Shown: one piece after another, positions 2,871 to 38,952 of the stretch
Position numbering within the stretch: the first letter of the stretch is position 1
Layout: each line of letters opens with the position of its first letter
Source: an uncultured Anaerolineaceae bacterium
Lineage (GTDB): Bacteria; Chloroflexota; Anaerolineae; Anaerolineales; Anaerolineaceae
DNA: 47,878 nucleotides
Assembly: GCA_964546745.1 (NCBI GenBank)
Contig: CAZJLN010000001.1
Coordinates: 1-47,878 of the forward strand
Reading direction: 5' to 3'
Translations under genes and position numbers: made by a program
Notes under the pieces: model-generated
Seen by the model: only the letters and a program-made list of their open reading frames with translations
The model's database searches: none
Told to the model about the DNA's origin: nothing

Positions 2871-2956
2871 AATTATTGGGTGTATCCCTGTCGATTTAAG
2901 ATATAAATCTAATAAATTTTTACAAAATATCCGGACCCATGATAAGATTATTTTCT

Positions 2957-4713: not shown

Positions 4714-4716
4714 CGC

Positions 4717-5796: not shown

Positions 5797-5824
5797 AAAA
5801 CTTCCTTTAGCCTAATTGAATTTA

Positions 5825-20936: not shown

Positions 20937-21099
20937 ACGATTATTATAGCTGAAAGGATCAGGAGAAAATGCCTGTAGTTTGGAAAGAAATATTGTTTTA
21001 AATCTTACAAACACAATTTTTACAGCATCTGCTTACCAAAAAAATCTACTGATCAAATAAATGTGCTTATTCTGTCGATAGCTTATCTACATTTTCCGT

Positions 21100-21149
21100 C
21101 CAAAAAAGGGTACCCCAATCAACTTAAGTACTTAAATTGCTTGTTGATT
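21100..21149 (-). terminator. Candidate terminator at the end of the AT-rich sugar operon
   Basis: On the minus strand, AATCAAC..GTTGATT flanks a TTAAGTACTTAA palindrome. It is followed by GGGGTACCC and TTTTTT. The stems are weak and AT-rich. Confidence 0.3.
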
Positions 21150-21189
21150 TCAGAATGATGGAAGAATAAGGTGTAAAGCTAAATAAAAT

Positions 21190-22815
21190 CTATGGGACCT
21201 TTATGACAATAATCCCATTAATCATCTGTATGTATCCGTCATTGGGATAAATAGGCATATTCAAAAATTCTTCAGAACTTTTAATAATATTTAGATCACT
21301 GGTTTTGGGACCTATAACCCTAAAAGAAAGAAAATTATTGAACATTTGATAATAATCTAATCTATTCATATATATATCATCTCCCTCAATCCCAGAAATT
21401 TTATTTAGAGCTGTAAACTCAGGACGAGTGGTGATGAACGGGACTGGCTCTGTTATAATTGCGACCCTTGTATCAGTAGTGTAACCTTCCATCTTTGAAA
21501 TATCATGTGTAATACGAACAGCAGTGGCATAAGATGATTCATAAGAAAGTTGCATATGGAAGTATCCCAGATTTGCTAATTTGAACCAATTAAATATCAA
21601 AACTACTGTGAATATTACCGCTGTCCAATTTAGAACGCTCAAACTATTATTCTTAAATATATTAATTTTATTGGTTTTTTTGTCAGTTAACTCCAAGCTT
21701 TTTTGTTTTTTATCTTCAGAAATATCATTAAGTATTTCTGTTAATTTAACTAACAATATGTATACCAACACAAAAGGATAGATCATTAACCAGTGCGTGT
21801 CCGGGTTTTGTCCTAAAACAGCAATGATATGAACCCCCAATGGAAATAATATCGCAAGAAAAAACGCCAGTATCAAATTAAGCTTTCTATATAATTTGGT
21901 AAATAAACCAATTAGGATTGAGAATAATACAATTAAGAATATTGAAATACGATATGCCCAAATAAAAAATGGAGTGGTTATTCCGTACTTGTCATAATAA
22001 AAAAAACGATATACTTTTTTGTATGCTTGATAAATTAATTCAGGTATAGATGCGAGAGATGGACTTTGCATATTGTCTATATCCCGATAAGCCGTGAGTG
22101 TTGTTCCAGTGGCTTTCAAACTAAGTTGAAGAATCCCATAATATAAGGCTATACTGATTATTATGATCAGAAGATATCTTAAACCTTCTAAGAGGATTTC
22201 CCTGGATCTCACCTCGTTTTTTATTGCTTTTACAAAACAAAGAATTATAAATAATCCTAAACTATATCCTATGTAAGCTTGATAGGTCCCTAGTGACAAA
22301 GTCAAAGAAACAATACTGACAACCCATGCCCATGATTTCTCTTTGGTGGCAAAATAAACAGCTAGAGTAGCTAAAAGAAGTGCAAAGAAAAATTTATCAG
22401 CGCCACCATATACAAATATGCCCACAGTAGATGGAAATGTTACTAATAGGCCTGATACTAAAACAATGTTGAGCCAGTTCTTTATTTGCAAAACATGGAT
22501 GGTTAGAGAAGCGGTTATGCTTAGTAAGATGATTGCCAGAGGATTGATTATCCCATTAACAAAAAAACCACCTCTAACTTTGTTTAGAAAAAAATAGAAC
22601 CACCTTCCCTGATCAAGACGAATACCAGATCCATACAAATATCCAACAGAATCATGATTGATAAGTTTGTTGGTGAGTATCGTTAAATGAGTAATTACTG
22701 CAATAATCAAAGCAGAAAAAAAAGCAATTCGAACTTCTCTTGATAATCGTAAATACCTTGTTTTTATCCAAGAGGAGATATCTATTATTTCCATAACTTG
22801 ATTTAAGACCTCCAC
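21190..22815 (-). CDS. Polytopic membrane protein, putative GT-C/GtrII-like lipid-linked-sugar glycosyltransferase
   Basis: 541 aa with about 11 TM segments plus a soluble domain of about 150 aa. It starts 5 nt after the GtrB-like GT2. The track start is GTG at 22815; an alternative ATG lies at 22794. The family assignment rests on topology and context. Confidence 0.55.
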   Translation of the reverse strand: MEVLNQVMEIIDISSWIKTRYLRLSREVRIAFFSALIIAVITHLTILTNKLINHDSVGYLYGSGIRLDQGRWFYFFLNKVRGGFFVNGIINPLAIILLSITASLTIHVLQIKNWLNIVLVSGLLVTFPSTVGIFVYGGADKFFFALLLATLAVYFATKEKSWAWVVSIVSLTLSLGTYQAYIGYSLGLFIILCFVKAIKNEVRSREILLEGLRYLLIIIISIALYYGILQLSLKATGTTLTAYRDIDNMQSPSLASIPELIYQAYKKVYRFFYYDKYGITTPFFIWAYRISIFLIVLFSILIGLFTKLYRKLNLILAFFLAILFPLGVHIIAVLGQNPDTHWLMIYPFVLVYILLVKLTEILNDISEDKKQKSLELTDKKTNKINIFKNNSLSVLNWTAVIFTVVLIFNWFKLANLGYFHMQLSYESSYATAVRITHDISKMEGYTTDTRVAIITEPVPFITTRPEFTALNKISGIEGDDIYMNRLDYYQMFNNFLSFRVIGPKTSDLNIIKSSEEFLNMPIYPNDGYIQMINGIIVIKVP

Positions 22816-22820
22816 ACTTT

Positions 22821-23774
22821 TTACTTCTGTGCAGAAATATCCTTAAAGTTAATCCTTTTTTCTTCAATAACCAAGGGTCTGCGCATCACCCTGGTATTGA
22901 TGCTTATTATGTACTCTCCAAGAATTCCTATAAAAAACAGCTGAACAGAGGAGAAAAAAAACAAACCTATAAGAATTGGTGCAGTCCCCGCTGGGAAACG
23001 GTCCCAAAACAACAATTTTAAGATCAAATATACGATTCCGATAATGATACTGATAGCAGCAATACCAAAGCCGATTAATGTTGAAATCCGTAAAAATATT
23101 TTTGAGTATGAAGTGATTCCGATCATTGCATAATCGTAAAGTGATATAAAATTATTTTTACTTTTTCCGCCACGACGTTTATGTTGTCTGTAAGGAATGG
23201 CTTTGTAATCAAATCCGAGTTCAGCTACGATTCCGCGAAGGTAAGGAAGGGGGTCATCTAACTCGCGTAAAATATCGATAAATTGTTTGTCATACAGACC
23301 AAATCCAGTAAAGTGGCGAATTTGCTCTACATCAGATATTTTCTGGATAAGTTTGTAAAAGCTGGAGCGAATGAAATAATTAACTTTGCTCTCTTCACTT
23401 GAATCTTTGATTCCAATGACAATCTTCCACCCTTTTTCCCACTCCTTTAGAAAATCTACAATCATTTCTGGAGGGTCCTGAAAATCTGCGCAAAGCTTTA
23501 TTACACAATCTCCATATGCCTGCTTGAGTCCATAGACTGGAGACTTTAATTGTCCAAAATTCCTAGTATTGAAGATTGCTTTGATCCGATGGTTTTGGCT
23601 GCAAATCACTTCTATTTCATCTCTCGTTCCATCAGTGGAATGATTATCGATAATTATAATTTCATAATCATAATGTGATAGCTGGGTTTCAAACAAAGTG
23701 ATAAGCACATCACAAAGTTGTCGGATATTTTGGACTTCGTTATAAGTTGGGATCACTATGCTGATTTTCTTCAT
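22821..23774 (-). CDS. Polyprenyl-phosphate glycosyltransferase, GT2 (GtrB/ArnC/DPM1-like)
   Basis: KKISIVIPTYNE, YEIIIIDNHSTDGT, RNFGQ, LCADFQDPPE and two C-terminal TM helices make up the GtrB/ArnC architecture. ATG at 23774 forms an ATGA overlap with the upstream stop; the track start is 23798. Confidence 0.85.
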   Translation of the reverse strand: MKKISIVIPTYNEVQNIRQLCDVLITLFETQLSHYDYEIIIIDNHSTDGTRDEIEVICSQNHRIKAIFNTRNFGQLKSPVYGLKQAYGDCVIKLCADFQDPPEMIVDFLKEWEKGWKIVIGIKDSSEESKVNYFIRSSFYKLIQKISDVEQIRHFTGFGLYDKQFIDILRELDDPLPYLRGIVAELGFDYKAIPYRQHKRRGGKSKNNFISLYDYAMIGITSYSKIFLRISTLIGFGIAAISIIIGIVYLILKLLFWDRFPAGTAPILIGLFFFSSVQLFFIGILGEYIISINTRVMRRPLVIEEKRINFKDISAQK

Positions 23775-24709
23775 GCAATTTTCTCCGCTTTCATCCATTC
23801 GATGGTTTTCCTTACCCCATCTTCAAAAGTAAATTGAGGGACAAATCCTGTGTCATTGGTGAGGGATGAAATGTCTACGCACAAGTTGGTTGGTTGGTTT
23901 GAATTTAAAGCCATGTTTCCCAAAACCACCTTATATTCAGGGTTAATAATATCACGCATAGCATAGATGTAATAAGAAAGTTTATAACTTCTTCCACTTC
24001 CAAGACAGTACACATGTCTAGTGTTTTTAGATTGTCCTATCATATAAAGCGCAATTCCTGCATCCTCAGAAAATAAGTAATCCCAATATTGTTCACCAGA
24101 AGTAAAAGACATTTGTTCATTGTTTAAAAATTTTCTGATTGCTGAACTTATCATCGTGGTTGGTTTGTCATAAATCCCAAAAACACTAAATATTCTTACC
24201 CAAACAAATTCCAAACCAAGCATCTGACACTCGAGTTCAGCACATTTAGCCGCGGCATATTTAGCAATTCCGTAAGGAGTATCAGGATTGGTGGGTGATT
24301 CAGGTGTTAAAATAACTCCTTGTGTTTTCCCGTATTCTGCTTGGGATCCAGCACCTATGAACCGTTTACACCCAAGTTCTTTTGCAGATCTCGATGCATG
24401 GATCGTGAAGCGGATATTTTCTAGTTGCAAAAAAATATTTTCGTTGCGTTTTACTCCTGTCGCTTTCCAACCCAGATGGAAAAAAGTATCACATTCATGG
24501 CTAATTAAATTTGGAAGATTGCGATAGTTTTCACTATCGCACTGTATTATTTTTATCAGATCTGATGAAGGAATTCGGTTCATCTTTTTTGTGCCAGGCT
24601 GAACCACTGAAAAAACACGCACATCCTTCTTGATAAACTGTTGCGTTAACGCAACACCAATCATTGAGGTAGCTCCTGTTATTACCACACTTTTTTTTGG
24701 CTGTGTCAA
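23771..24709 (-). CDS. NAD(P)-dependent SDR sugar ketoreductase/epimerase (RfbS/RfbJ/YerF-like)
   Basis: 312 aa. Rossmann motif VVITGATSMIGVAL and catalytic YGIAK (YxxxK). It overlaps the upstream ThDP enzyme gene by 4 nt. Confidence 0.8.
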   Translation of the reverse strand: MTQPKKSVVITGATSMIGVALTQQFIKKDVRVFSVVQPGTKKMNRIPSSDLIKIIQCDSENYRNLPNLISHECDTFFHLGWKATGVKRNENIFLQLENIRFTIHASRSAKELGCKRFIGAGSQAEYGKTQGVILTPESPTNPDTPYGIAKYAAAKCAELECQMLGLEFVWVRIFSVFGIYDKPTTMISSAIRKFLNNEQMSFTSGEQYWDYLFSEDAGIALYMIGQSKNTRHVYCLGSGRSYKLSYYIYAMRDIINPEYKVVLGNMALNSNQPTNLCVDISSLTNDTGFVPQFTFEDGVRKTIEWMKAEKIA

Positions 24710-26526
24710 GGTATGTCTTCCTCCCAGAGCGGAATCAACATATTGGCTTTAAGTTCGTCTAACGGAAGGAAGGGATACATATTCTCCAGGCTTTGTGATA
24801 CTATTCTGCCATCCCTAAGTTGACGGCTGGAAAGTTTTGGTTGGGTTTCTTGATCTAATCCTACAATTACTTCGCAAATTGCTGAACTTTGACTTGTAAG
24901 GACTTCTGTTATTACAGAATTAAGATCATGGGTCTTTGAACATGAATAATATGTAATACCATAGGCACAGGCAATTTTTGAAAGATCAGGAAAGCTCAAG
25001 TCACCGCTATCATTACCCACGCCAACCAAATTTCCGTTGAAATAATGGTTTTGTGTTTGCCGAATCGAATGATAACCTTCGTTATTGATAACAAATATCT
25101 TTATCGGTAATTTATTTTGGACGATAGTCTGTAATTCCTGAATATTCATTTGAAAACTTCCATCCCCAGTGACACAGACAACGGATTGCTTCCCATTTGC
25201 GATACAGGCTCCGATGGCTGCAGGGAGACAATAACCCATGGATGCAGTAGTTGGGTTGGTAATAAAACGTTGCCCCTTTTTAATTATCACAGATTGACTT
25301 CCTGCAACTCTAACCATACCGATACTTACTACTAATATTGACGATTCAAGCATTTCCTTGCTTAACTCATTGAAAAAAGCATATATATTAGTCTTTTGAT
25401 CGTTGTCATAGTGACTTTGGCCAACAACAGGATAATTGTTTTTCCATTTAGAACATGTTTTATTCCATGCAGTGTGTTTAGTGAGATTCTTGTTTTTGCA
25501 CACCTTAGTTAGTGCAGTTATAAATAATTTTGCATCAGCACAAATCGGTAAATCAATTTGAATCTGTTTTTTCTTAAGCTCTTCTTCGTCAATATTTACC
25601 ATCACTTTGTAAGCAGCTCTTGCCCAGGCTTTAAAATTAAAACCAGTTACAGAAATCCCCAATCTACTTCCGATAGAAAATAAGAAGTCACAATTTTGCA
25701 TAGCAAAATTTCCTGCCCGTGTACCAGTAGGACCACATCGGCCAATATATAAAGGATTATTTGATTCGATAACATCAATACTGCTCATACAACTTATGAC
25801 AGGAATATTCAATAGCGATACAAGTCTTAAGAATTCTTGATGTGCTCCCGCTAATCGAATCCCATTTCCAGCAATTATGACTGGTCTTTCTGATGATTGA
25901 ATCTTTTCTAAAAGCTTAACCAGAATTTGTTCGTCTTCTAATTCATGCTGATTCTTTTGGCTCTGTTTGTGGTACTTTTTAAGGTCTACAGTCTCAATGA
26001 TCGCACCTTGAACATCCAATGGAATGTCTAGCCATACTGGCCCGGGTCTCCCAGATCTTGCCAGTTGTAGTGCCTTTTCTAGATGATATCTAATTTCAAG
26101 AGGTTCATTGACAGTTACAGCATATTTTGTCATGCTTTTGATTGCAGAAACAATGTCGACTTCTTGAATTCCAAAAAAACGCACTTTTGTTCCTGTACTT
26201 GCAGCTGAATTGCCTCTAGGTACCTGACCAGAGATAAATAAAACGGGAATCGAATCTGTATATGCACACAAACATCCTGTTATCGCATTTGTAGCTCCAG
26301 GACCTGATGTGACACAGGTGCATGACATCTGATTATTAACACGAAAAAATGCTTCTGCAGCCATAGCCGCAGCTTGTTCGTGATGATGATAAGTCACATG
26401 AAGTCCATCCTGATGCCCAAAAGCATCGTTTAGATGCATTGATCCACCACCTACTACTGAAAAAATATTGGTGAATCCATTTTCCACCAAAAATTCAGAA
26501 ATATACTTAGACAACTTTATTTGCAT
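24706..26526 (-). CDS. Thiamine-diphosphate-dependent enzyme of the acetolactate-synthase large-subunit family (YerE-like)
   Basis: 606 aa with a three-domain ALS-like layout. The N-terminal Pyr domain has HHHEQAAAMAAEA. The ThDP motif is TGDGSFQMNIQELQTIVQNKLPIKIFVINNEGY, matching GDG-x(24-27)-NN. Confidence 0.85.
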   Translation of the reverse strand: MQIKLSKYISEFLVENGFTNIFSVVGGGSMHLNDAFGHQDGLHVTYHHHEQAAAMAAEAFFRVNNQMSCTCVTSGPGATNAITGCLCAYTDSIPVLFISGQVPRGNSAASTGTKVRFFGIQEVDIVSAIKSMTKYAVTVNEPLEIRYHLEKALQLARSGRPGPVWLDIPLDVQGAIIETVDLKKYHKQSQKNQHELEDEQILVKLLEKIQSSERPVIIAGNGIRLAGAHQEFLRLVSLLNIPVISCMSSIDVIESNNPLYIGRCGPTGTRAGNFAMQNCDFLFSIGSRLGISVTGFNFKAWARAAYKVMVNIDEEELKKKQIQIDLPICADAKLFITALTKVCKNKNLTKHTAWNKTCSKWKNNYPVVGQSHYDNDQKTNIYAFFNELSKEMLESSILVVSIGMVRVAGSQSVIIKKGQRFITNPTTASMGYCLPAAIGACIANGKQSVVCVTGDGSFQMNIQELQTIVQNKLPIKIFVINNEGYHSIRQTQNHYFNGNLVGVGNDSGDLSFPDLSKIACAYGITYYSCSKTHDLNSVITEVLTSQSSAICEVIVGLDQETQPKLSSRQLRDGRIVSQSLENMYPFLPLDELKANMLIPLWEEDIP

Positions 26527-26620
26527 TAATAGATCCTTCTATTTATTGCGCAAAAGGTGCATTACCAGACTCTATGTCACCTCAAGGCTTTTAAAAATTA
26601 ATCCAAAACCCTTCCTTTTG

Positions 26621-27958
26621 CTAAATATTCACAGCTTCACTAAGTCGTAAAGTAATTTGTCCAAGTGTTTCCTCAGTCATACCTGGATAAATACCCACTA
26701 AAAATGTATCGCGCATGATCTTATCCGTATTTTGTAGAGACCCTACAACCCGATATCCTTCTTTTGTTTTTCGCATTTGATCAAAGCAGGGGTGTTTTAG
26801 TAGATTTCCTGCAAACAAGGAACGGGTTTGGATTCCGTGATTTTCAAGATAACGAACAATTATTTCTCTTCTATTTTCCTGTAGACATGTGAGTGGGAAT
26901 GCAAACCAACTAGGAATCGAATTCTCAAGAGGTTCTGGAAGCAATAATTTGTCAGATATTGAAATTAATGCTTGATAAAGATAATTGAAGTTCCTGATTC
27001 TTTGTTCAATAAAATACGGTAATTTCTTAAGTTGGGAGCATCCTATCGCCGCTTGCATATCAGTGGCTTTAAGGTTATATCCGAAATGAGAATACACATA
27101 TTTGTGATCATATCCATAGGGTAATTCTCCATATTGTGCATCAAAGCGGTGATTACAGGTGTTATCCATGCCGGGTGGACATTTACAATCCCTGCCCCAA
27201 TCCCTCAGAGACCGCATTATTTTGTGCAGCAATGGATTATTCGTGTAAACAGCCCCGCCTTCCCCCATGGTGATATGATGGGCCGGGTAAAAACTTGAGG
27301 TTCCAATGTCACCTATAGTACCTGTAAGGATCTCCTCCCCTTTAATATTTACTCTAGAGCCTAATGCATCACAATTATCTTCAATTAACCATAAATCATT
27401 ACGTTCACAGAAGGATTTTACTTTTTCTATGTTAAAAGGATTGCCTAGTGTGTGTGCCACCATGACTGCTTTTGTTTTTGGTGATAAAGCTGTTTCCAGC
27501 AAGTTCGGATCGATGTTATATTGAGGTATTGTGACATCTACAAAGACAGGAATTGCTCCAAATTGGATTATCGGTGAAACTGTAGTCGGGAAGCCTGTGG
27601 CAACTGTAATAACCTCATCCCCTCTTTTCACAGCTCGATCTCTCAGCAATGGAGATGTTAGGCACATAAAAGCCAACAAATTTGCTGATGAGCCAGAGTT
27701 TACTACTGAACAATACTTTAAATTTAAAAAACCTGCAAAGTCCTTTTCAAATTGATCTGTAAACCGCCCAGCAGTCAGCCAAAAATCTAATGCACTATCA
27801 ACTAAGTTAATCATATCGTCTTTGTCATAGATACGAGAAGCATAAGGAATACGTTGCCCTTCCTTATAAGCAATGCTCTTATGATGCTTTTCACAATATT
27901 GACTAACTAGGTTAAGGATGGCTTGCCGATCCTCCTGCTCGCCTTTCTTCTCAAACAT
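26621..27958 (-). CDS. rfbH: CDP-6-deoxy-L-threo-D-glycero-4-hexulose 3-dehydrase (E1; RfbH/DdhC/AscC type)
   Basis: 445 aa, DegT/DnrJ/EryC1 fold. SFYPAHHITMGEGG has His where aminotransferases carry the Schiff-base Lys (codons 27275-27280). The Cys cluster DCKCPPGMDNTC (CxCx7C, 27155-27187) is characteristic of E1. Confidence 0.88.
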   Translation of the reverse strand: MFEKKGEQEDRQAILNLVSQYCEKHHKSIAYKEGQRIPYASRIYDKDDMINLVDSALDFWLTAGRFTDQFEKDFAGFLNLKYCSVVNSGSSANLLAFMCLTSPLLRDRAVKRGDEVITVATGFPTTVSPIIQFGAIPVFVDVTIPQYNIDPNLLETALSPKTKAVMVAHTLGNPFNIEKVKSFCERNDLWLIEDNCDALGSRVNIKGEEILTGTIGDIGTSSFYPAHHITMGEGGAVYTNNPLLHKIMRSLRDWGRDCKCPPGMDNTCNHRFDAQYGELPYGYDHKYVYSHFGYNLKATDMQAAIGCSQLKKLPYFIEQRIRNFNYLYQALISISDKLLLPEPLENSIPSWFAFPLTCLQENRREIIVRYLENHGIQTRSLFAGNLLKHPCFDQMRKTKEGYRVVGSLQNTDKIMRDTFLVGIYPGMTEETLGQITLRLSEAVNI

Positions 27959-29018
27959 TTATCACTGATCCTTTCAGGTATTCAGTTATTTGTTGTTCCA
28001 TGATGATACCAATATCGGAATTTGACAGATAGGCTTTGTACCATTCTACAGTTTTTTCAATGGCTGTTTTAATATCCCATAAGGGCATCCAGCCGATAGT
28101 ATTTACTATTTTGGAGTTATCTAATTTGAGAAATGCTGCCTCATGAGGGGCGTCACTCTCTTGTTGTTGTGTGTAACCTAAGCCTTCCCCCCATGCGTTA
28201 CAGAAAAGCTTAACTAATTCTAATGTCGTAACACAATCCTGATCAAAAGGCCCAATATTATATTCCCCTTCAAGATAGTTCTTTTGTGTTTGCATCTGAA
28301 GAATTGAAAGGTAAGCGGTGAGGGATTCTAAGACATGTTGATAGGGTCTGATGGAGCTTGGGTTTCTAATAACGATATCCCGCCGGTCCTTTGCCGCCAC
28401 AAAACAATCAGGGATGATCCTATGAGGTGCAAAGTCTCCTCCTCCAATGACGTTTCCAGCTCTTGCAGTAGACACTAGCACATTTTGCCTTGAAAAATAA
28501 GACCGTTTATAACACCTGGTCACTAACTCTGAACATGATTTGCTATTTGAATATGGATCAAAACCGTCTAGCGTATCTTTTTCTTGATATCTTGTGGCTA
28601 TTCCGTCATTCATGTAAACCTTATCTGTTGTCACATTTATTGCTGAACGCACACTGGACGAAAGACGGATACACTCTAAGAGATTAACTGTTCCTAACAC
28701 ATTTGTTTCGTAAGTATAAACGGGCATTCGATAGCCATCTCTCACGATAGGTTGGGCAGCTAAGTGAATGACAAATTCGGGTTTGGCTTCCAGAAAGACA
28801 TTAGTAAGGGTGTTTTTATCTCTAATATCTCCAATAAATGAATTTACAAACCTGCCGATCTTTGCTACTTTGTAAAGTGATGGATTGGTTGGCGGTTCAA
28901 GAGCATATCCCGTTATTTCCGCGCCCAGCATGTGGAGAAGCATACATAACCATGACCCCTTGAAACCTGTATGCCCAGTTAAAAAGATCTTCTTTCCCTT
29001 AAAAAAAGTGGTTATCAA
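27951..29018 (-). CDS. rfbG: CDP-glucose 4,6-dehydratase
   Basis: 355 aa. GKKIFLTGHTGFKGSWL, HLAAQPIVR and YSNSK are canonical DdhB/RfbG motifs. Confidence 0.92.
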   Translation of the reverse strand: MITTFFKGKKIFLTGHTGFKGSWLCMLLHMLGAEITGYALEPPTNPSLYKVAKIGRFVNSFIGDIRDKNTLTNVFLEAKPEFVIHLAAQPIVRDGYRMPVYTYETNVLGTVNLLECIRLSSSVRSAINVTTDKVYMNDGIATRYQEKDTLDGFDPYSNSKSCSELVTRCYKRSYFSRQNVLVSTARAGNVIGGGDFAPHRIIPDCFVAAKDRRDIVIRNPSSIRPYQHVLESLTAYLSILQMQTQKNYLEGEYNIGPFDQDCVTTLELVKLFCNAWGEGLGYTQQQESDAPHEAAFLKLDNSKIVNTIGWMPLWDIKTAIEKTVEWYKAYLSNSDIGIIMEQQITEYLKGSVINV

Positions 29019-29029
29019 ATAATATTCTC

Positions 29030-29815
29030 CTACTTATCTTCCCATCTCATCCAGGGTGCATTATGGTTGTTAATTAAACCCTCGAGATAAAATTTATCTC
29101 TAAGGGTATCCATACATTGCCAAAAGCCATTATATCGGTAAGCCATTAACTCACCCTCAAATGCCAGTCTTTCAAGAGGTTCTTGTTCTAGTATCGATTC
29201 GTCACCCGATATGTAGTCAAAAATTTTTGAATTTAGAACCATAAAACCTGCATTTATCCAGCCCCCATCTTCCTTTCGTTTTTCTGCAAACCGCTTGATC
29301 TCACCAGTTTCATGCATATCAAGAGCTCCAAACCGTCCGCCTGGTTGTACGGCTGTAATAGTTCCAATTTTTTTGTGATTATTGTGAAAAGCAACAAGCA
29401 TCTTTAGGTTGATATCACTTAAACCATCTCCATAGGTTAAAAAGAAGGATTCATCACCAATATATTTTTGAACTCTTTTTACTCTCCCCCCTGTCATAGT
29501 ATTTAACCCAGTATCTACGACAGTGACTCTCCAAGGTTCCGACACATTATTTAAGATAGTGACCTTGTTACCGTTAGAAAAATCATAAGTGACATCTGAA
29601 TTCCTCATATAGTAATTAGCAAAATATTCCTTGATGACACTTCCTTTATATCCACAGCAAATATAGAAATCATTAAATCCATAAAACGAGTAGGATTTCA
29701 TAATATGCCACAGGATAGGCGTATCAACCAATTCAATCATTGGCTTTGGAATTAAATGACTTTCCTCCGATATTCTTGTGCCAAACCCTCCTGCAAGGAT
29801 TACAACTTTCATCAT
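29030..29815 (-). CDS. rfbF: Glucose-1-phosphate cytidylyltransferase
   Basis: 261 aa. MMKVVILAGGFGTRISEE..PKPMIEL..PILWHIMKSYSFYGFNDFYICCGYKGSVIKEYFANYYM is canonical DdhA/RfbF. Confidence 0.93.
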   Translation of the reverse strand: MMKVVILAGGFGTRISEESHLIPKPMIELVDTPILWHIMKSYSFYGFNDFYICCGYKGSVIKEYFANYYMRNSDVTYDFSNGNKVTILNNVSEPWRVTVVDTGLNTMTGGRVKRVQKYIGDESFFLTYGDGLSDINLKMLVAFHNNHKKIGTITAVQPGGRFGALDMHETGEIKRFAEKRKEDGGWINAGFMVLNSKIFDYISGDESILEQEPLERLAFEGELMAYRYNGFWQCMDTLRDKFYLEGLINNHNAPWMRWEDK

Positions 29816-29940
29816 TTCACCTTTTGTCCGATTTTTCGATCATGTTTTAGCAAACGAGACCCCATAAGTAAATAATACTTACCGGATTGAGGTCATTAAT
29901 TACAATTCTTTTCATTTAACTATTTATCATTCACTTGTGG

Positions 29941-31062
29941 TCAGTAAGCCCTTTTTTGTAACAAAACAGTATCTTGATAATTATCTATACCCAATGCCAT
30001 GATTTCAATAATTTCAAAATATCTTCGCCACTCTCTTTTTATGTAAGCATGAGAATGATAGGCATTTTGATAAAAATCCGGCAAGGATATGCTTTTCCCG
30101 TAATTAAAACCAGGTTCACAATAAAAGAAACCTTTCTCATTCATTATCTTAACAATCTCATCATCCATATTCTTATAATGTTTTTCTCCATGAGTTGTTA
30201 ATATTACATATCCGTTTTTTTTGGTGATACGGTTCAATTCGCCCAACCATTGAAATTGCATATCTTCTGGTAGATGCGTTAATACGCTAATCCCAAATAT
30301 TAGATCAAACTTTTCATCTGAGTATTGAGTAGGTGGATTCGGAGGAGCCACTGTGAATTTGGCAAACTTCGAGTAATTATTGTTTAACCATTCAATCGCT
30401 TCTCCATCGATATCGGTTCCATGAAGCTCAGTTACTTGAAGAAGAGTCGCTAATGCCCTTATAGCACGACCACACCCACAACCAAAATCTAATATGGATT
30501 TAAAGTCACGTAATTCCTTGCCAACCGGCCGTAATACATTATTTAACGCCGGGTATACACTAGTATATCCACTCTCAATAAAGTCCCGTGAGTATCCACC
30601 AACTACTCTAACTTGTAAATGTTTAGGAGGTGCGGGTGGAATATTTATCTCCCTATGTAATATGGATTGTAATTGGATTAATGATGTTTCAATATCCTTT
30701 AGTTGATTTCTTATTTGTTTTGAGGAAAAATCAAAAATTTCGTCAGTTGAAGATGAAAAACTCTCTTTTGTGTTTCCAGACTCAAGATAATGGATAAGAG
30801 GATTTATACCTGTCTTTTTTACCTCCTCGTGAATCTCTAGATATCGTCTGGTACTGAAATTGGGTCCTGGATCCCGACCCTCAAAACCTCCATAAAGTAA
30901 AAAGTGACTTAAAGGATTTATTTTTGACTGAGCTACATCACTATATTTTTTCAAATACCAACTTTCATCGAAAAAACCAGATTTTTTTATTAGGCTTTTA
31001 TTTTTCAATGCACCGATTCGAGACTTAATCTTGATATTCCAATCCCTAAAATGGTTATTCAT
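29941..31062 (-). CDS. Class I SAM-dependent methyltransferase with an N-terminal tandem WYL..Y.DVA..NPL.HYL..G repeat module
   Basis: 373 aa. SAM motif I is ILDFGCGCGRAI, with post-I DIDGEA and motif II DLIFGISVLTHL. The N-terminal module is at aa 31-96. Confidence 0.8.
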   Translation of the reverse strand: MNNHFRDWNIKIKSRIGALKNKSLIKKSGFFDESWYLKKYSDVAQSKINPLSHFLLYGGFEGRDPGPNFSTRRYLEIHEEVKKTGINPLIHYLESGNTKESFSSSTDEIFDFSSKQIRNQLKDIETSLIQLQSILHREINIPPAPPKHLQVRVVGGYSRDFIESGYTSVYPALNNVLRPVGKELRDFKSILDFGCGCGRAIRALATLLQVTELHGTDIDGEAIEWLNNNYSKFAKFTVAPPNPPTQYSDEKFDLIFGISVLTHLPEDMQFQWLGELNRITKKNGYVILTTHGEKHYKNMDDEIVKIMNEKGFFYCEPGFNYGKSISLPDFYQNAYHSHAYIKREWRRYFEIIEIMALGIDNYQDTVLLQKRAY

Positions 31063-31229
31063 TTATCTTTTGACTCCTAAAACTTTGTTAGATACTCTTT
31101 ATTCATTAAGTGTTGATTTGATATAAATTAAACCCAAATACGACATCCTCAAATTATAATACAGGTAATAATTAGAGGAAGACATCCAAAATTACTAGAT
31201 TTATAATTGATTTAGATCTTATTGAACAA

Positions 31230-32273
31230 CTATCTAATTTCTTCCATAAGCCAGATTAGTGCATCGTCAAATCTTTTTGCCCACTCGTCACGGCTACTTA
31301 CCGCGCCTTCAAAAATTTCAAATTTAAGATTAGCACCTGGAACACCTTGAGATAATAAAGTGTTATATAAATAGTCCGCCCCTTCAAGATAAGCTTGTGG
31401 ATAGGTGATACGTTCTCCATCTTTATCTAATACATTTGGCGGCGGTCCGCTAGATTCCTCTGTACCGATATCCATATATATTCGCACATTAGTAGGTACT
31501 TCGATTTTTTTGATGTAATCGATAAGTTGATTATTTGACAACCACGGACCTCCACTTTCTGCAAGCCAAACTGACGGTGACATCACCATCACTTTAGAGA
31601 AAATATCTGGTCGGTTAAGCCCAGCATACAAGGGAATCAATGCAGTCCTACAAGCCCCACCTATGATTGTATGGATCCTGTCGGGAAGAGTTCTATAACG
31701 AGAATCGATATCGAGTTTTAAAGTGTTTATGATGAAATCTAAATAAGCGTCCCCGTCACCTCCCTCAGTTGGTTTGGAGTTGTTTGTTTTCACCCAACGA
31801 TGCATATCATTATTTACCCATGGAATATACTCACCCCAAAGGTTTTCTGGATCAAACTCAATACCGACTACAATAATCCCTTGTAGCAACTCTTCCTCAA
31901 AAAGCCGATCTAATGTTTCATCAATTAGCCAATCCCCCACCCTTTCTGGAGGAGGATTGAATAATGAATCACCATCATGTAGGTAAATCACAGGATATCG
32001 AATTTCATTTGCATCATATTTGGGTGGTAAATAGACTTGAATGTTTCTCTGACGATTTCCGAGTTGAGGTGCTATGATTTTGAGGGTTTCAACTCGACTA
32101 TCTAACATTGGATTTAAGGGGGTATCATGAGATTCGGTCGTATTTGCAGTAGAGGTTGCCTGATTTGGGAAATCAGTTTTTTCTCGTTTAGAGTATTTAC
32201 AACCCGCAATAGTAAATAAGATAATTGTTATTAGTAGAAGTATTTTCCAGGTCTTTGAATCAATTTTTTGCAT
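31230..32273 (-). CDS. Esterase-D/'putative esterase' family (alpha/beta-fold) lipoprotein with an atypical nucleophile elbow
   Basis: 347 aa. Signal peptide with lipobox (TIAGC). YPVIYLHDGDSLF and PDIFSKVMVMSPSVW fit the PF00756-like fold. The elbow reads IIGGACRTAL, with no GxSxG. Confidence 0.6.
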   Translation of the reverse strand: MQKIDSKTWKILLLITIILFTIAGCKYSKREKTDFPNQATSTANTTESHDTPLNPMLDSRVETLKIIAPQLGNRQRNIQVYLPPKYDANEIRYPVIYLHDGDSLFNPPPERVGDWLIDETLDRLFEEELLQGIIVVGIEFDPENLWGEYIPWVNNDMHRWVKTNNSKPTEGGDGDAYLDFIINTLKLDIDSRYRTLPDRIHTIIGGACRTALIPLYAGLNRPDIFSKVMVMSPSVWLAESGGPWLSNNQLIDYIKKIEVPTNVRIYMDIGTEESSGPPPNVLDKDGERITYPQAYLEGADYLYNTLLSQGVPGANLKFEIFEGAVSSRDEWAKRFDDALIWLMEEIR

Positions 32274-32631
32274 TTTTTGTTAATTTTTGCGTTGATGTGA
32301 TCTTTTAACTTCACATTTATAAACTCAGTCAATTTCTCTTTCAATTATGTAAGACTCACTTAAAAGCATTCATCTTAAAAAAGATTGTACTATATTTCAC
32401 TTTTAGTAATAATTTAAGATTATATATACCCATCGAAGCCATGAAAACTTGATAAAGGTAATGTAAATAGTGCCGCTTATCTATATTTTGATCTCTGCCT
32501 GATCCTAAAGCAGGGAAATGATTTTTTATTGAATTGCTTATGAGTACCAAATTTTTATCATTCTATTGGTAAGATATAATACAAAGTAATTTGGTAGGAT
32601 TTTGTGATGAAAGAAATCAACAGGTATTGTA

Positions 32632-35600
32632 ATGAAAATTAACTCAGTTGCTTTTTTTACCCACTATACGCATACCTCTGCAATTGAAATATATCGAGTC
32701 TTTTCCCCATTGAAAGAGGCAGGCTTTAATATAATATCTGGCATCAAGGATGGTCAAGTCAACTTTGAGGCAATTGATCAAGCAGAATTAATCCTTTGTC
32801 AACGGGATTTTGGTCAAGACCTAACTAGATATGAAAAGCTTGTCAAGTATGCGCGAACACAGAGAAAACCAATTGTTTTTGATATAGACGATTTATTAAT
32901 TGAAATTCCAGAAATCCACCCCGATCGTCTAAATCTGACTTTCAATCATGCTGTTTTACCCATGATTCGTTCAATTAGTGAAGCTGACTTAGTTACAGTT
33001 TCTACTAAAAAATTAAAAGAAACCCTGACTTCTTTTAATCCAAACATTGTTGTTTTACCAAACTACTTAGATACTTCTATTTGGCAACTAAGGGAGCCAA
33101 GACTAAATAATATTGAAGATTCTCCCATAACCATAGGGTACATGGGGGGAGGAAGCCATACTTCGGATTTGGAATATATTCAGCCAGTTATTTCTGATCT
33201 ACTCACTAGATATGAAAACAAAATAAAATTTGTTGTTTGGGGTTTACAGCCTCCTAAGGAACTATTACGCTTTGCTCAAACAAAATGGATCAGGATATCC
33301 ACCTACTCCTATGAAGATTTTGTTAATTTCTTTCAACGCCAACAGGCTGACATATTTATTGCACCGCTTGTAGATAATTTATTTAACAGATGCAAAAGTG
33401 AGATTAAGTTCTTGGAATATTCTGCCTTGGGATCTCCAACTCTTGCTAGTAACTTGGAACCTTATAACAGTATCATCAAGAATGGACAAAACGGTTTTCT
33501 TGCAAGCAATTACGAGGAATGGACAGAATACCTGATTCAGCTTATAGAAAATCATGATCTTAGGTATAAAATTGCTTTGAGTGCTCTGGAAACGGTCAAA
33601 AATGACTGGTTAATATCAAATAATTCTGATAGATGGAAATCCTCATACCAAAATATCAAAAGTGAGGGCTTAAATATCGAAACACATGTTATTCTAAAGA
33701 AGCCATTATTTAATTCAATAACTCAGCAAATCTTTGATCTGGACCAATATCAAAAAAAAGAAATCCGTAATCTCCACGAAAAACTTAAAGACAAGGATCA
33801 AACTATTCGTACCAAGGATCATATGATTCAAGATAAGGACTTGGTCATACAAAAATTAAATTTTCAATTAGCAAGCCGTGCAGTAATTTTGGGACAAAAA
33901 ATGCAAAAATTCTACAACCGTCTTGCTCCTGAAGGAAGTTCAAGAGATAAAGCCGTAAGCCACACAATTAGATTCTTTAAAAAGATAAATAAATCTGTTT
34001 TCAAACAAGACAATCTCTCTAATGATGTAAACCTGATAAAAGCCTCACCTTATTTTGATGAGGATTGGTACTTATCGACATATCAGGATGTCGCAAAATT
34101 AAAAATGGATCCCGCAATGCATTATTTGAAATATGGTGGCTTTGAAGCTAGAGATCCTGGGCCAAATTTTAATAGTGCTTTTTATTTAACGGCCTATGAT
34201 GATGCAAAAAGAGCAAATATGAACCCTCTTTTACATTACATTCGTTTTGGCGAAAAAGAAGGTCGGAAAACCAGCTCTAATCAACAAGTAGATCAAGCCC
34301 CAATAAAAACCCAAGAAAGTCGTCAGATTCCTCAGAATTCCAAAAAAGTTGAGATAAAAATGGAAGAAAAAAAGAACATTGCCTACTATAGTAAAAGATC
34401 TCTTAAGATTCTCAGGGATGACGGTTTGGGTGGGTTGCTAAGTCGTGGAAAGCAAAAGGTTATGAAACAAATCACCTATGAAAGCCCGTTAGATTCAAAT
34501 TATGATCCAAACATGTTTGATGCCAGTGTTATTATTCCAGTTTATAACGCCTCTGATTTTACCAAGTCTTGTATTGAGAAATTATATGCATCGCCAAATC
34601 TTGCAAAATTTGAAGTTATTGTAGTAGACAATGGTTCAAAAGACGAAACAAAAAAAATATTAGCTGAGGAACAGAAAAGGCGTGAGAACTTTTCATATTA
34701 TCGTATGGCTGAGAATTATGGATTCTCTGGTGGGGTGAATTATGGTTTTTCCAAGGCGAAAGGGAAACATTTCATTATCCTAAATAACGATACACTCGTT
34801 ACACCCGGTTGGATTGATCGCCTAATTGAAGCATTTAATTATGATGAATTAATTGGTATTGTTAGTCCGGTCACTAATTATGTGGGAGAGGGAAATCAAG
34901 TAGATCGGGACGCAAAAGATATGACTCCAACAGAAATTGATGCATATGCCGAGTCAATAGTCGACAGAGGTGTAATATTCGAATCTCATCGCTTGGTTTT
35001 CTTCTGTGTTGCCCTAAAGCGAGAAGTAGTCGACCACTTGGGTATTATGGATACGGGGTATGTAAAGGGCAACTTTGAGGATGATGATTATTGTCTTCGA
35101 GCAATCCTTGCAGGGTTTAAATTAGCCATTGCTCAGAATTCTTTTGTTTATCATTTTGGTTCAATGACGTTTAAGAAGAATCGCATCATTCACGATGATT
35201 ACATGGATAAAAATCGGATGCGCTTTTACCCTAAAGTACAAGGCTTATCGCTCACACTCAAACCAGCAAAGCAATTATCAAACCAAGTCGATATAAGTGT
35301 AGTGCTTCGCACTTTAAATCGTCAAGCGCTTCTGAAAAGGGCATTAACCAGTCTCTCCAACCAAACTTATAAAGACTTTGAGGTTGTATTAGTAAATGAT
35401 GGTGGGGAGGATGTTTCCGAATTAGTAACTTTCTTTTCAAAATACTTTTCAATTAAGTATGTTCATAATAAAACTTCTCAAGGGAGAACCCCCGCCCTGA
35501 ATATTGGCGTAGCAGAAAGCAATGGATCTTGGGTTACCTTTCTTGACGATGATGATATTATCTACCCATGGCATCTTGATATGATGCACAAAAATGTGGA

Positions 35601-36138
35601 ATCTGAAATAGGGCATCGCTTACTATATACCAATTTTAATCGCAGCATCTTCAGGACAATAAAGGATGATTATGCATTTCTAACCCAAAGTATCGACCCA
35701 TGGTTTTATGACAAAAATGAGCTTTTAATCCGTAATCGTATGCCCATTCACACATGGTTGGTTCACCGATCTGCGTTCAATGAAGTTGGCTGGTTTGATG
35801 AATCAATGTCAATGTTGGAGGATTTTGAATTTTTAATTAGATTGAATAAGATCACAGATTTTTATCATATTAACCGGGTATCCTGTGAGTATAGATACTA
35901 TTTGGATGGGATTAATTCCATGATTAATCAAAGATCTAAAACACTGGAAGCTTTGGAATCCATTTATGCTAAACATCCCGTAAAAGACCTCGATATTGAA
36001 GAAAATCGAATGCTGGAATTAGGTGCTCTTAAACGTCAAATTAACACAATTGAAGAGATAGAAAAAGAATTATCCCAAGATCCACAACATGCAGAGGTGT
36101 ATCAAAGAAAAATGTTGAGCCAAATTTTGGGGATATAA
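32632..36138 (+). CDS. Multidomain glycosyltransferase: N-terminal GT-B (GT1/GT4-like), coiled coil, tandem WYL..HYL module, then two GT2 domains
   Basis: 1168 aa. Aa 1-340 are GT-B-like (KSEIKFLEYSALGSPTLAS). Aa ~370-410 are heptad-rich. The repeat module is at aa 475-540. The first GT2 has VIIPVYNA, VVDNGSKDET and ILNNDTLV. The second GT2 has ISVVLRTLNR, VLVNDGGED and FLDDDDIIY. Confidence 0.85.
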   Translation: MKINSVAFFTHYTHTSAIEIYRVFSPLKEAGFNIISGIKDGQVNFEAIDQAELILCQRDFGQDLTRYEKLVKYARTQRKPIVFDIDDLLIEIPEIHPDRLNLTFNHAVLPMIRSISEADLVTVSTKKLKETLTSFNPNIVVLPNYLDTSIWQLREPRLNNIEDSPITIGYMGGGSHTSDLEYIQPVISDLLTRYENKIKFVVWGLQPPKELLRFAQTKWIRISTYSYEDFVNFFQRQQADIFIAPLVDNLFNRCKSEIKFLEYSALGSPTLASNLEPYNSIIKNGQNGFLASNYEEWTEYLIQLIENHDLRYKIALSALETVKNDWLISNNSDRWKSSYQNIKSEGLNIETHVILKKPLFNSITQQIFDLDQYQKKEIRNLHEKLKDKDQTIRTKDHMIQDKDLVIQKLNFQLASRAVILGQKMQKFYNRLAPEGSSRDKAVSHTIRFFKKINKSVFKQDNLSNDVNLIKASPYFDEDWYLSTYQDVAKLKMDPAMHYLKYGGFEARDPGPNFNSAFYLTAYDDAKRANMNPLLHYIRFGEKEGRKTSSNQQVDQAPIKTQESRQIPQNSKKVEIKMEEKKNIAYYSKRSLKILRDDGLGGLLSRGKQKVMKQITYESPLDSNYDPNMFDASVIIPVYNASDFTKSCIEKLYASPNLAKFEVIVVDNGSKDETKKILAEEQKRRENFSYYRMAENYGFSGGVNYGFSKAKGKHFIILNNDTLVTPGWIDRLIEAFNYDELIGIVSPVTNYVGEGNQVDRDAKDMTPTEIDAYAESIVDRGVIFESHRLVFFCVALKREVVDHLGIMDTGYVKGNFEDDDYCLRAILAGFKLAIAQNSFVYHFGSMTFKKNRIIHDDYMDKNRMRFYPKVQGLSLTLKPAKQLSNQVDISVVLRTLNRQALLKRALTSLSNQTYKDFEVVLVNDGGEDVSELVTFFSKYFSIKYVHNKTSQGRTPALNIGVAESNGSWVTFLDDDDIIYPWHLDMMHKNVESEIGHRLLYTNFNRSIFRTIKDDYAFLTQSIDPWFYDKNELLIRNRMPIHTWLVHRSAFNEVGWFDESMSMLEDFEFLIRLNKITDFYHINRVSCEYRYYLDGINSMINQRSKTLEALESIYAKHPVKDLDIEENRMLELGALKRQINTIEEIEKELSQDPQHAEVYQRKMLSQILGI
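33793..33855 (+). repeat. Three imperfect 21-bp tandem repeats inside the GT gene encoding KDQTIRT-KDHMIQD-KDLVIQK
   Basis: aaggatcaaactattcgtacc / aaggatcatatgattcaagat / aaggacttggtcatacaaaaa, read directly. They form the heptad units of the coiled-coil segment. Confidence 0.6.
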
Positions 36139-36209
36139 TAGCCCGATCTTATAAATAATAATATGCAAATCGAAATATTGATAATCTAGATTGTTAAAGA
36201 TATTTACAC

Positions 36210-38246: not shown

Positions 38247-38490
38247 GTAATACTCCACCAAGTAAAATTAATCTATCCAAAAATGTTTACAAAAATAAGC
38301 TTAGTCCGTTTATTTTACCGACAATTATTATACCTTAGGTATAAATACTGTCGACCATTTACAAAAAACCATTGTTATCATGAAATTGTCTCAATTCATT
38401 AGAGACAACGATTGTTTCTCTCCTAAAGTCCGGAATCACACAGCATTATTGGTGGACGTTTAAAGTCTTTATTTCTAAAAATAATTATGC

Positions 38491-38519
38491 TTGCTTATAT
38501 CGTATTTATCTTGTACAAT
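38491..38519 (+). promoter_or_regulatory. Candidate sigma-70-type promoter for spoVS
   Basis: TTGCTT (38491-38496), a 17-nt spacer, then TACAAT (38514-38519), about 80 nt upstream of the spoVS ATG. The background is AT-rich, so chance matches are possible. Confidence 0.4.
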
Positions 38520-38597
38520 ATAATTAATACCTATTAATGATGAATTAGGTTTTGCTAAGATTTTTCTCTTGCCTATAAGATTTATGGGAGATGAGAC

Positions 38598-38900
38598 ATG
38601 AACATTATAAAAGTATCGGCAAACTCCCGCACCGCTGCTGTAGCAGGGGCTATTGCAGGCGTCATGAGAGAAAAGCATTTTGTGGAAGTCCAATCTATTG
38701 GAGCTGGTGCTGTTAACCAGGCAGTCAAAGCCATCGTGTTAGCAAAGAGCTATTTGATCAACGATGGTATTGATATCATTTGCGTGCCCGAATTTGTCGA
38801 TATTACTATCGAAGATAAGGTGCGCACTGCTATAAAGTTTGTGATCACACCCAGAGAAGAGGTCTTAAAATTCGAAGCGGTCAATCCTGAAGAGTTTTAA
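38598..38900 (+). CDS. spoVS: Stage V sporulation protein S family protein
   Basis: 100 aa. IKVSANSRTAAVAGAIAGVMRE..VEVQSIGAGAVNQAVKAIVLAKSYL..IDIICVPEF..RTAIKFVITPRE is near-canonical SpoVS. GGGAG lies 7 nt upstream. Confidence 0.9.
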   Translation: MNIIKVSANSRTAAVAGAIAGVMREKHFVEVQSIGAGAVNQAVKAIVLAKSYLINDGIDIICVPEFVDITIEDKVRTAIKFVITPREEVLKFEAVNPEEF

Positions 38901-38952
38901 CTCTTTTTTACTTTAGGGGGTGATCTACCCACAACGGGTATTTCAATTTGGA

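Follow-up and report, generated by a model that had tools for sequence, protein, structure and literature searches.

A seven-gene operon of an Anaerolineaceae bacterium predicted to form a yersiniose-type branched sugar and deliver it through a lipid carrier

Introduction

Yersiniose and other C-branched deoxy sugars rank as rarities in textbooks. YerE-like enzymes are in demand as biocatalysts that make chiral tertiary alcohols. The C-branched dideoxy sugars described so far come mainly from lipopolysaccharides and mycobacterial lipooligosaccharides. The present work concerns a 47,878-nucleotide stretch of DNA, here called the window, from an uncultured Anaerolineaceae bacterium of the Chloroflexota (assembly GCA_964546745.1, contig CAZJLN010000001.1). 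Its minus strand carries seven closely packed genes (29815..21190) that make up one operon, located in a low-GC island of this Anaerolineae genome. The operon is predicted to build a yersiniose-type sugar and to attach it to an envelope glycan by way of a lipid carrier, a reading to which a probability of roughly 60% is given as a whole.

The closest described system is the yersiniose A pathway of Yersinia pseudotuberculosis O:6 and O:12, in which ddhA, ddhB and ddhC are followed by a thiamine diphosphate (ThDP) carboligase and a reductase, in the same order as in the window (PMC5399914, PMC9306805). The complete Yersinia order is ddhD-ddhA-ddhB-ddhC-yerE-yerF-wzx-GT, the last being a glycosyltransferase (GT) gene (PMC5399914). 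The same scheme, ThDP-dependent branching of CDP-4-keto-3,6-dideoxyglucose and then reduction, applies to ErwE and ErwF of the erwiniose pathway in Pectobacterium and to MMAR_2332 of the caryophyllose pathway in Mycobacterium marinum; the ErwE and MMAR_2332 clusters also carry an aldolase making the hydroxylated 2-oxo acid donor (PMC9306805), a gene that the window lacks. The only two YerE-like enzymes with structures are JanthE of Janthinobacterium sp. HH01 (8rph, 8rpi and 8rpj) and PpYerE (5ahk), and JanthE accepts donors from C3 to C6 (PMC12188165, PMC12247030). All reports of yersiniose itself concern Gram-negative bacteria, namely Yersinia, Burkholderia brasiliensis, Budvicia and Pseudomonas mandelii (PMC4753412). 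Pectobacterium, Mycobacterium, Rhodopseudomonas and Spirochaeta are known to have related branched sugars, and PMC12247030 cites an in silico study listing more than 200 YerE-like clusters, some of them from Mycobacterium, Spirochaeta and Rhodopseudomonas. The pathway type is already known and is not confined to Proteobacteria. In the literature searched, no description was found of a YerE-like cassette tied to a polyprenyl-phosphate transferase, of a systematic absence of the E3 reductase (DdhD/AscD) from such cassettes, or of their abundance in Clostridia or presence in Chloroflexota.

Other known systems share components with the window. The three-component Gtr systems (GtrA/GtrB/GtrII of Shigella phages; CsbB/YfhO and GacI/GacL-type systems of Gram-positive bacteria) have in common with it a GtrB-like family 2 glycosyltransferase (GT2) and a GtrII-family transferase. 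Unlike their UDP-Glc or UDP-GlcNAc, the donor in the window is predicted to be a CDP-activated C-branched dideoxyhexose, and the window has no GtrA, whereas its relatives add GtrA and YfhO. The large subunit of acetohydroxyacid synthase (AHAS; IlvB, IlvI, IlvG) belongs to the same superfamily as the ThDP enzyme of the window and shares its three domains and GDG...NN motif. The window enzyme differs in scoring below the AHAS cut-offs, in having no regulatory-subunit gene beside it and in forming part of a separate clade.

Gene order and conservation of the operon

The operon opens with Ep (DdhA/RfbF), a glucose-1-phosphate cytidylyltransferase of 261 amino acids (aa; 29030..29815), followed by Eod (DdhB/RfbG), a CDP-glucose 4,6-dehydratase of 355 aa with a TTG start (27951..29018), and E1 (DdhC/RfbH), a CDP-6-deoxy-L-threo-D-glycero-4-hexulose 3-dehydrase of 445 aa that depends on pyridoxamine phosphate and a [2Fe-2S] cluster (26621..27958). 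The fourth gene (24706..26526) encodes a predicted YerE-like carboligase of 606 aa using ThDP and probably FAD, and the fifth (23771..24709) an extended short-chain dehydrogenase/reductase (SDR) of 312 aa, also with a TTG start, which is a predicted reductase. These genes are separated, in this order, by an 11-nt gap, an 8-nt overlap, a 94-nt gap and a 4-nt overlap. An initial annotation, made from the sequence alone, had described the five minus-strand open reading frames at 23771-29815, and their coordinates, tight spacing and identities are upheld here, as are the motifs it quoted (GDGS...NN, GATSMIG and YGIAK). The unit extends further than the five genes then proposed. The SDR gene overlaps that of a GT2 of 325 aa, a polyprenyl-phosphate glycosyltransferase of the GtrB/ArnC/DPMS type (22821..23798), and 5 nt beyond lies the gene of a GtrII-family polytopic membrane glycosyltransferase of GT-C type with 541 aa (21190..22815). 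The true start of GT2 is probably the second ATG at 23774, hence a 4-nt overlap with the SDR gene. A scan for promoters and terminators between 20800 and 32700 returned sites no more frequently than in shuffled sequence.

The gene logic of Yersinia O:6, to which the locus was initially likened, is retained in ddhA-ddhB-ddhC, the ThDP enzyme and the reductase, and the same CDP-4-keto-3,6-dideoxyglucose intermediate is predicted. It is not retained beyond them: ddhD (E3), wzx and a Leloir side-branch glycosyltransferase are absent, and the GtrB-like/GtrII-like pair is found instead. The host also differs, being a Chloroflexota anaerobe with no lipopolysaccharide O-antigen genes in view.

Relatives were collected by scanning one genome per species, and the comparative counts given below refer to the best 80 of at least 585 confirmed relatives of the ThDP enzyme. 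Homologues of the window proteins accompany it in 64 (SDR), 63 (GT2), 56 (E1), 44 (Eod) and 40 (Ep) of these 80 loci. The SDR gene stands directly behind the ThDP gene in 51 and GT2 comes directly next in 39, while the order Ep-Eod-E1-ThDP-SDR-GT2 is contiguous, as in the window, in 11.

The CDP-sugar enzymes

Ep, Eod and E1 were judged against the curated equivalog cut-offs of NCBIfam, and all three pass: Ep with 377.4 bits over its full length (TIGR02623, cut-off 300.25), Eod with 411.6 bits (TIGR02622, 278.45) and E1 with 681 bits (NF011936, 423). By these scores they are taken as orthologues of the enzymes turning glucose-1-phosphate into CDP-4-keto-3,6-dideoxy-D-glucose. The Ep homologues of related loci, at 55-65% identity, occupy the same position. 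The TTG start that gives Eod 355 aa is the plausible one; it retains the Rossmann motif LTGHTGFKGSW, and a public 330-aa call of the identical dehydratase on a Logan contig (L175 2112-3104; L numbers denote related loci) would drop the NAD-binding GxxGxxG motif.

E1 aligns with the Yersinia E1 structures 3bcx and 3bb8 at 489 bits. It retains SFYPAHHITMGEGG with H227 and H228 (AHH 226-228), a His replacing the Schiff-base Lys of aminotransferases, and the cysteines C196-X61-C258-X-C260-X7-C268 are conserved in the alignment with 3bcx. We take this C-Xn-C-X-C-X7-C arrangement to be the [2Fe-2S] motif of E1 enzymes. Because the His-for-Lys exchange and the iron-sulfur cysteines are both kept, E1 should be a true, reductant-requiring 3-dehydrase.

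The dedicated reductase of E1 has no counterpart here. No Fer2, FAD_binding_6 or NAD_binding_1 domain was found in the window by a Pfam scan of 37 of the 43 listed open reading frames of at least 100 aa, the six left out being short and nested antisense within longer genes. A flavodoxin-like open reading frame lies at 9850-10332, 16 kb from the operon. Since no E3 gene exists, E1 would be reduced by a general ferredoxin or flavodoxin, which is plausible for strict anaerobes. SpnQ of spinosyn biosynthesis is a precedent for an E1-type enzyme served by a general electron carrier. A pathway dead for want of E3 was considered as the principal explanation and rejected: E3 is missing in all 85 related loci, and the iron-sulfur ligands of E1 are intact.

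The YerE-like carboligase

The 606-aa enzyme contains the TPP_enzyme_N, M and C domains (PF02776, PF00205 and PF02775). The catalytic Glu and the GDG-X(24-27)-NN motif for diphosphate and Mg binding are present, the latter as GDGS...NN at residues 454-482, and E50, G454-D-G456 and N481-N482 are invariant in an alignment of 13 family members. Its top matches in the PDB are JanthE (8rph, 385 bits, 5.8e-114) and then PpYerE (5ahk, 255 bits, 1.3e-74), while plant, yeast and bacterial AHAS structures score at most 230 bits. The JanthE alignment spans residues 2-598, and the tail at 567-598 aligns with JanthE only, being uncovered in the AHAS alignments. The active-site residue K567 of JanthE corresponds to K564 in the window enzyme, which is invariant in the family alignment; V121 corresponds to I120 and Y297 to F296. 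JanthE differs in having a CDG motif where the window enzyme has the canonical GDG.

A neighbour-joining (NJ) tree was built with 28 sequences, 603 columns and 100 bootstraps, comprising the window protein, 21 homologues, JanthE, PpYerE and IlvI, IlvB, Gcl and PoxB of Escherichia coli. A clade with 100% bootstrap unites the window protein with its homologues, JanthE and PpYerE and excludes the four E. coli enzymes. Identity to JanthE is 34%, to PpYerE 31% and to IlvI 29%, with about 26-29% to AHAS generally. The enzyme also remains well below every curated cut-off for AHAS, glyoxylate carboligase (Gcl) and sulfoacetaldehyde acetyltransferase (Xsc). These comparisons place it in the YerE-like clade of carboligases and not among AHAS. 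The initial annotation had expected as much and had named clustering with AHAS as the outcome that would speak against it; the tree shows no such clustering.

The gene context points in the same direction. The ThDP gene follows E1 after 94 nt and shares the operon with Ep and Eod, and the linkage to E1 is kept in 56 of the 80 relatives. The predicted reaction of the enzyme attaches an acyl branch at C-4 of CDP-4-keto-3,6-dideoxyglucose. An exact-match look-up of the protein gave no match, and tblastn of plasmids returned only true AHAS genes at no more than 30% identity, with no annotated YerE-like context.

Proposed pathway and the nature of the branch

The front-end enzymes would convert glucose-1-phosphate to CDP-glucose, CDP-4-keto-6-deoxyglucose and CDP-4-keto-3,6-dideoxyglucose, with E1 drawing its electrons from a general ferredoxin or flavodoxin. 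The ThDP enzyme would then decarboxylate a 2-oxo acid and place the acyl anion on C-4, giving a CDP-4-C-acetyl-3,6-dideoxyhexose if the donor is pyruvate. The operon holds no aldolase or other gene for making a donor, which leaves pyruvate as the simplest choice. The side-chain ketone would be reduced by the NADP(H)-type SDR to a yersiniose-type 4-C-(1-hydroxyethyl) sugar, to which no stereochemistry is assigned. GT2 would pass the branched sugar on from its CDP carrier to undecaprenyl phosphate. Once the lipid-linked sugar is flipped by a GtrA-type protein whose gene lies elsewhere, the GtrII-like enzyme would append it to an envelope polysaccharide, forming a side branch. This acceptor is possibly rhamnose-containing, because rml genes are present in the window and RgpF/WbsX rhamnan genes adjoin the cassette in the closest relative. 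The exact sugar, the donor, the length and stereochemistry of the branch, the specificity of GT2 for a CDP-sugar and the acceptor glycan are all predictions.

The same pathway could instead introduce a longer or functionalised 2-oxo acid, as ErwE, MMAR_2332 and JanthE do, and so make a C-branched sugar with something other than the C2 unit of yersiniose. This is unlikely but carries some weight, since JanthE, the closest solved relative, takes C3 to C6 donors (PMC12188165, PMC12247030) and the family includes long-branch enzymes. Donor diversity within the clade is real. An HMGL-like aldolase of about 530 aa is encoded next to the ThDP gene in 12 loci, from Selenomonas, Pectinatus, Treponema and others, including L042 7625-9229 of Selenomonas artemidis, L068, L031, L023, L053 and L055. 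The aldolase resembles those of the erwiniose and caryophyllose clusters, and by analogy Negativicutes, Treponema and some Lachnospiraceae may make long-branch sugars. In Blautia-type loci E1 and the ThDP gene are separated by three additional genes, encoding proteins of 438 and 404 aa with no Pfam family and an AMP-binding-like protein of 439 aa. The insert occurs in L003 (6022-9925, Blautia caecimuris DSM 29492), L001, L004-L010, L012, L014 and L020 and, more distantly, in L024; it is conserved at 57-92% among most of its carriers and suggests further modification of the sugar or the donor. The window operon contains neither: no aldolase, ligase or other donor-supplying gene and no Blautia-type extra genes were found in it, just 94 nt separate E1 from the ThDP gene, and the founding enzyme uses pyruvate by default.

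Transfer through a lipid carrier

The GT2 protein has full-length PDB matches to GtrB (5ekp, 4e-43) and ArnC (9hwj, 1.6e-30) and scores 185 bits against the PgfS model and 115 bits against the ArnC model, both below cut-off. Its two C-terminal transmembrane helices, at residues 233-269 and 270-295, are typical of polyprenyl-phosphate glycosyltransferases. The GtrII protein matches PF14264 (Glucos_trans_II; 1.1e-47, 163 bits) and consists of about ten transmembrane segments followed by a soluble part at the C-terminus. The two are assigned as a GtrB/ArnC-type polyprenyl-phosphate glycosyltransferase and a polytopic transferase. GT2 is predicted to form a polyprenyl-phosphate-linked branched sugar from the CDP-sugar, and GtrII to shift the sugar from the lipid carrier to a cell-envelope glycan outside the membrane. 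As both genes directly follow the SDR gene, delivery via a lipid carrier is implied.

Related loci contain comparable components. GT2 is 52-68% identical in most of the loci that have it. The three closest relatives inspected (65%, 61% and 59% identity of the ThDP enzyme) all retain ThDP-SDR-GT2, and two of them have GtrA immediately upstream. GtrA is encoded in at least 16 of the 80 loci and stands beside the ThDP gene in L172 and L173. GT-C enzymes are encoded downstream in many loci, at the place equivalent to GtrII; they are YfhO-like in at least 10 of the 80, counting clear matches, and GT87-like in 11. Searches by tblastn with the GtrII, PMT_2-type and 683-aa membrane proteins of the window gave no matches in related loci. 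The GtrII membrane transferase of the window is lineage-specific, and other GT-C families fill its place elsewhere.

It might be argued that GT2 and GtrII perform ordinary Gtr glucosylation with UDP-glucose or another common sugar and are merely adjacent, and that a cytoplasmic Leloir glycosyltransferase, for example the 1168-aa protein encoded at 32632-36138, uses the CDP-branched sugar. To our knowledge, all characterised GtrB, ArnC and DPMS enzymes take UDP- or GDP-sugars. The 1168-aa protein, a multi-domain GT1+GT2+GT2 enzyme, lies in the same island as the operon, and Yersinia relies on a Leloir glycosyltransferase to add its side-branch sugar (PMC5399914). Conservation makes this alternative improbable. 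GT2 is the best-conserved partner of the ThDP enzyme and the SDR across distant hosts: it is present in 63 of the 80 loci and immediately adjacent in 39 of them, and in the closest relative it is 71% identical, more than the ThDP enzyme itself at 65%. In several loci GtrA separates E1 from the ThDP gene, and the 1168-aa protein is conserved in no related locus.

Alternatives for the reductase and the carboligase

The SDR belongs to PF01370 (113.6 bits) and carries GATSMIG and, at residues 146-150, YGIAK; its family keeps TGATxxIG, GSQAEYG and YGxxK. Family members have Arg or Lys (Q37, K41 and K42 in the window) where NAD-specific SDRs carry Asp. The protein is predicted to be the NADP(H)-dependent reductase of the side-chain carbonyl, in the role of YerF, although the names YerF and yersiniose are applied by position and analogy. 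It could be imagined as an epimerase, or as a C-4 reductase acting before branching, so that the final sugar would bear a 4-C-acetyl group or be unbranched and of the paratose or abequose type. It does fall in the NAD-dependent epimerase/dehydratase family, its top solved match is a UDP-glucose 4-epimerase (60 bits), and CDP-tyvelose 2-epimerase is an extended SDR too. Such a role is very improbable. Once C-4 is branched the side-chain carbonyl is the sole ketone remaining, the family lacks the Asp of tightly NAD+-binding enzymes and has basic residues as NADPH reductases do, the gene lies directly behind the ThDP gene in 51 loci, and CDP-tyvelose epimerase is absent from the PDB matches at E <= 1e-8.

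That the ThDP enzyme is a divergent acetolactate synthase or another carboligase of central metabolism, placed in a sugar operon by coincidence, is already contradicted and was rejected on cut-offs, tree and gene context: its top-scoring NCBIfam model is indeed the AHAS large subunit TIGR00118 and homologues are publicly annotated 'acetolactate synthase large subunit', but the 369 bits fall short of the cut-off of 538, the remaining AHAS models (250-350 bits against 738-1084) miss theirs by a factor of 2 to 4, no ilvN/ilvH, ilvC or ilvD gene and no ACT-domain small subunit was found in the neighbourhood, and both the separation from IlvI, IlvB and Gcl and the conserved linkage to E1 stand against it.

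Several points weigh against the lipid-delivered yersiniose-type sugar preferred here. We know of no polyprenyl-phosphate glycosyltransferase that uses a CDP-sugar. GtrA has no tblastn match in the window, and no space for it exists between the operon genes. A search for the E3 motif (C-X4-C-X2-C with RxY[ST]) gave no match, either in the window or among 85 related loci. The PDB matches of the SDR are generic, at no more than 60 bits, so it has no informative characterised relative. The tie of the ThDP enzyme to the founding enzymes YpYerE, ErwE and MMAR_2332 is indirect, running through JanthE (34%) and PpYerE (31%) at identities to be compared with the 29% to IlvI, and the NJ tree is simple and has few outgroups. 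The physiological substrate of JanthE is itself unknown (PMC12188165). Enzyme functions, here and in the close relatives, are predictions based on sequence.

Distribution of the cassette

Relatives of the ThDP enzyme are encoded by at least 585 species-representative genomes, mostly of Clostridia. Together with the more than 200 clusters mentioned in PMC12247030, this number does not bear out, at the level of genes, the initial view that such sugars are rare and described only from a few Proteobacteria. The best 80 relatives are nearly all from Clostridia, including Blautia, Lachnospiraceae, Ruminococcus, Oscillospiraceae, Hungatella and Eubacterium. The rest include Selenomonas, Pectinatus, Treponema, metagenome-assembled genomes (MAGs) labelled Bacteroides and one Methanomassiliicoccales MAG. 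A metagenome scan with the ThDP protein found no closer relative in Chloroflexota; only the 65% relative and a distant aquatic group were returned.

The aquatic group consists of about 60 metagenome loci (L102-L165, e.g. L109 8787-11683), in which a ThDP enzyme 38-41% identical to that of the window directly follows a DegT-family gene 34-39% identical to E1. No window-type Ep, Eod, SDR or GT2 was found near these genes. The group looks like a different, very common sugar-branching cassette of marine and freshwater metagenomes. On a contig binned as Methanomassiliicoccales, a methanogenic archaeon, a ThDP homologue of 50% identity occurs with an SDR (L079), and the ThDP enzyme of a 'Bacteroides thetaiotaomicron' MAG (L050) is nearly identical in the tree to that of Hungatella hathewayi (L056). 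Both cases could reflect mis-binning or recent transfer.

Genomic setting

The region at about 21-39 kb of the window has 31-41% G+C, compared with 43-50% in the flanks. The nearest named relatives of the sugar genes are from Clostridia, unlike those of the M42 peptidase of the window, whose every named homologue (70-74% identity) comes from MAGs of Anaerolineae, Anaerolineales or Chloroflexi, which assigns the host to Anaerolineae. The clostridial relatives and the low G+C suggest that the sugar genes were acquired horizontally; the direction of transfer is not established. The SpoVS/ClpC context described initially is present, with SpoVS at 38598-38900 and a ClpC-type N-terminus that runs past the 3' end of the window.

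Besides the operon, the low-GC island holds an esterase, the 1168-aa GT1+GT2+GT2 protein and a polytopic membrane protein of 683 aa. The last (36210-38261, minus strand) is predicted to cross the membrane about 13 times and to end in a soluble C-terminal part; it gave no Pfam or NCBIfam match and no relative among the fetched loci, and it may be a further GT-C-type transferase or polymerase of the island. Directly upstream of Ep, on the minus strand, a class I S-adenosylmethionine methyltransferase of 373 aa is encoded at 29941..31062 (Methyltransf_12/23/25/11, 1e-11 to 3e-13). It may modify the sugar or the glycan, its membership in the operon is uncertain, and it is not conserved among the 80 related loci compared. 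Residues 23-136 of this methyltransferase and residues 467-585 of the 1168-aa glycosyltransferase share a module with 41% identity over about 120 aa. The module has the repeated pattern FDExWYLxxYxDVA...NPLxHYLxxGxxEGRxPGPxF and matches no Pfam family.

The dTDP-rhamnose genes (rmlDABC) lie at 2957-6376. Beside them, on the plus strand at 6535-8706, lies the gene of a 723-aa protein in which a zinc alcohol dehydrogenase-like half is fused to a GFO/IDH/MocA oxidoreductase half. A second low-GC stretch, at about 1000-3000 (31-41% against 43-50% G+C), contains a PMT_2-type membrane protein (1167-2870) adjoining rmlDABC. Both low-GC stretches (about 21000-39000 and 1000-3000) coincide with glycan genes, which is consistent with horizontally acquired surface-glycan islands.

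Significance

A broader picture is offered tentatively. The ThDP carboligase, the NADPH-type SDR and the GtrB-like GT2 may constitute a widespread module of single-membrane strict anaerobes, found in Anaerolineae and in many gut Clostridia including Blautia, Ruminococcus and Lachnospiraceae. GtrA and a GT-C enzyme often accompany it and Ep-Eod-E1 usually do, but E3 never does. Such a module would attach a C-branched 3,6-dideoxyhexose to undecaprenyl phosphate and modify wall polysaccharides on the outer side of the cell. In that case no polyprenyl-phosphate glycosyltransferase before GT2 would have been shown to accept a CDP-sugar, and C-branched dideoxy sugars would be common surface epitopes of abundant gut commensals.

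Culturable carriers of the cassette include Blautia caecimuris DSM 29492, Selenomonas artemidis DSM 19719, Hungatella hathewayi and Eubacterium xylanophilum. If the reading of the operon is true, E1 functions without a dedicated E3 reductase in anaerobes, and lipid-carrier delivery of the Gtr type proceeds from a CDP-sugar donor, for which we know of no precedent. The chemistry of C-branched dideoxy sugars would in that case extend to Chloroflexota and, through the relatives described here, to dominant gut Clostridia, where these sugars would form unrecognised surface epitopes.

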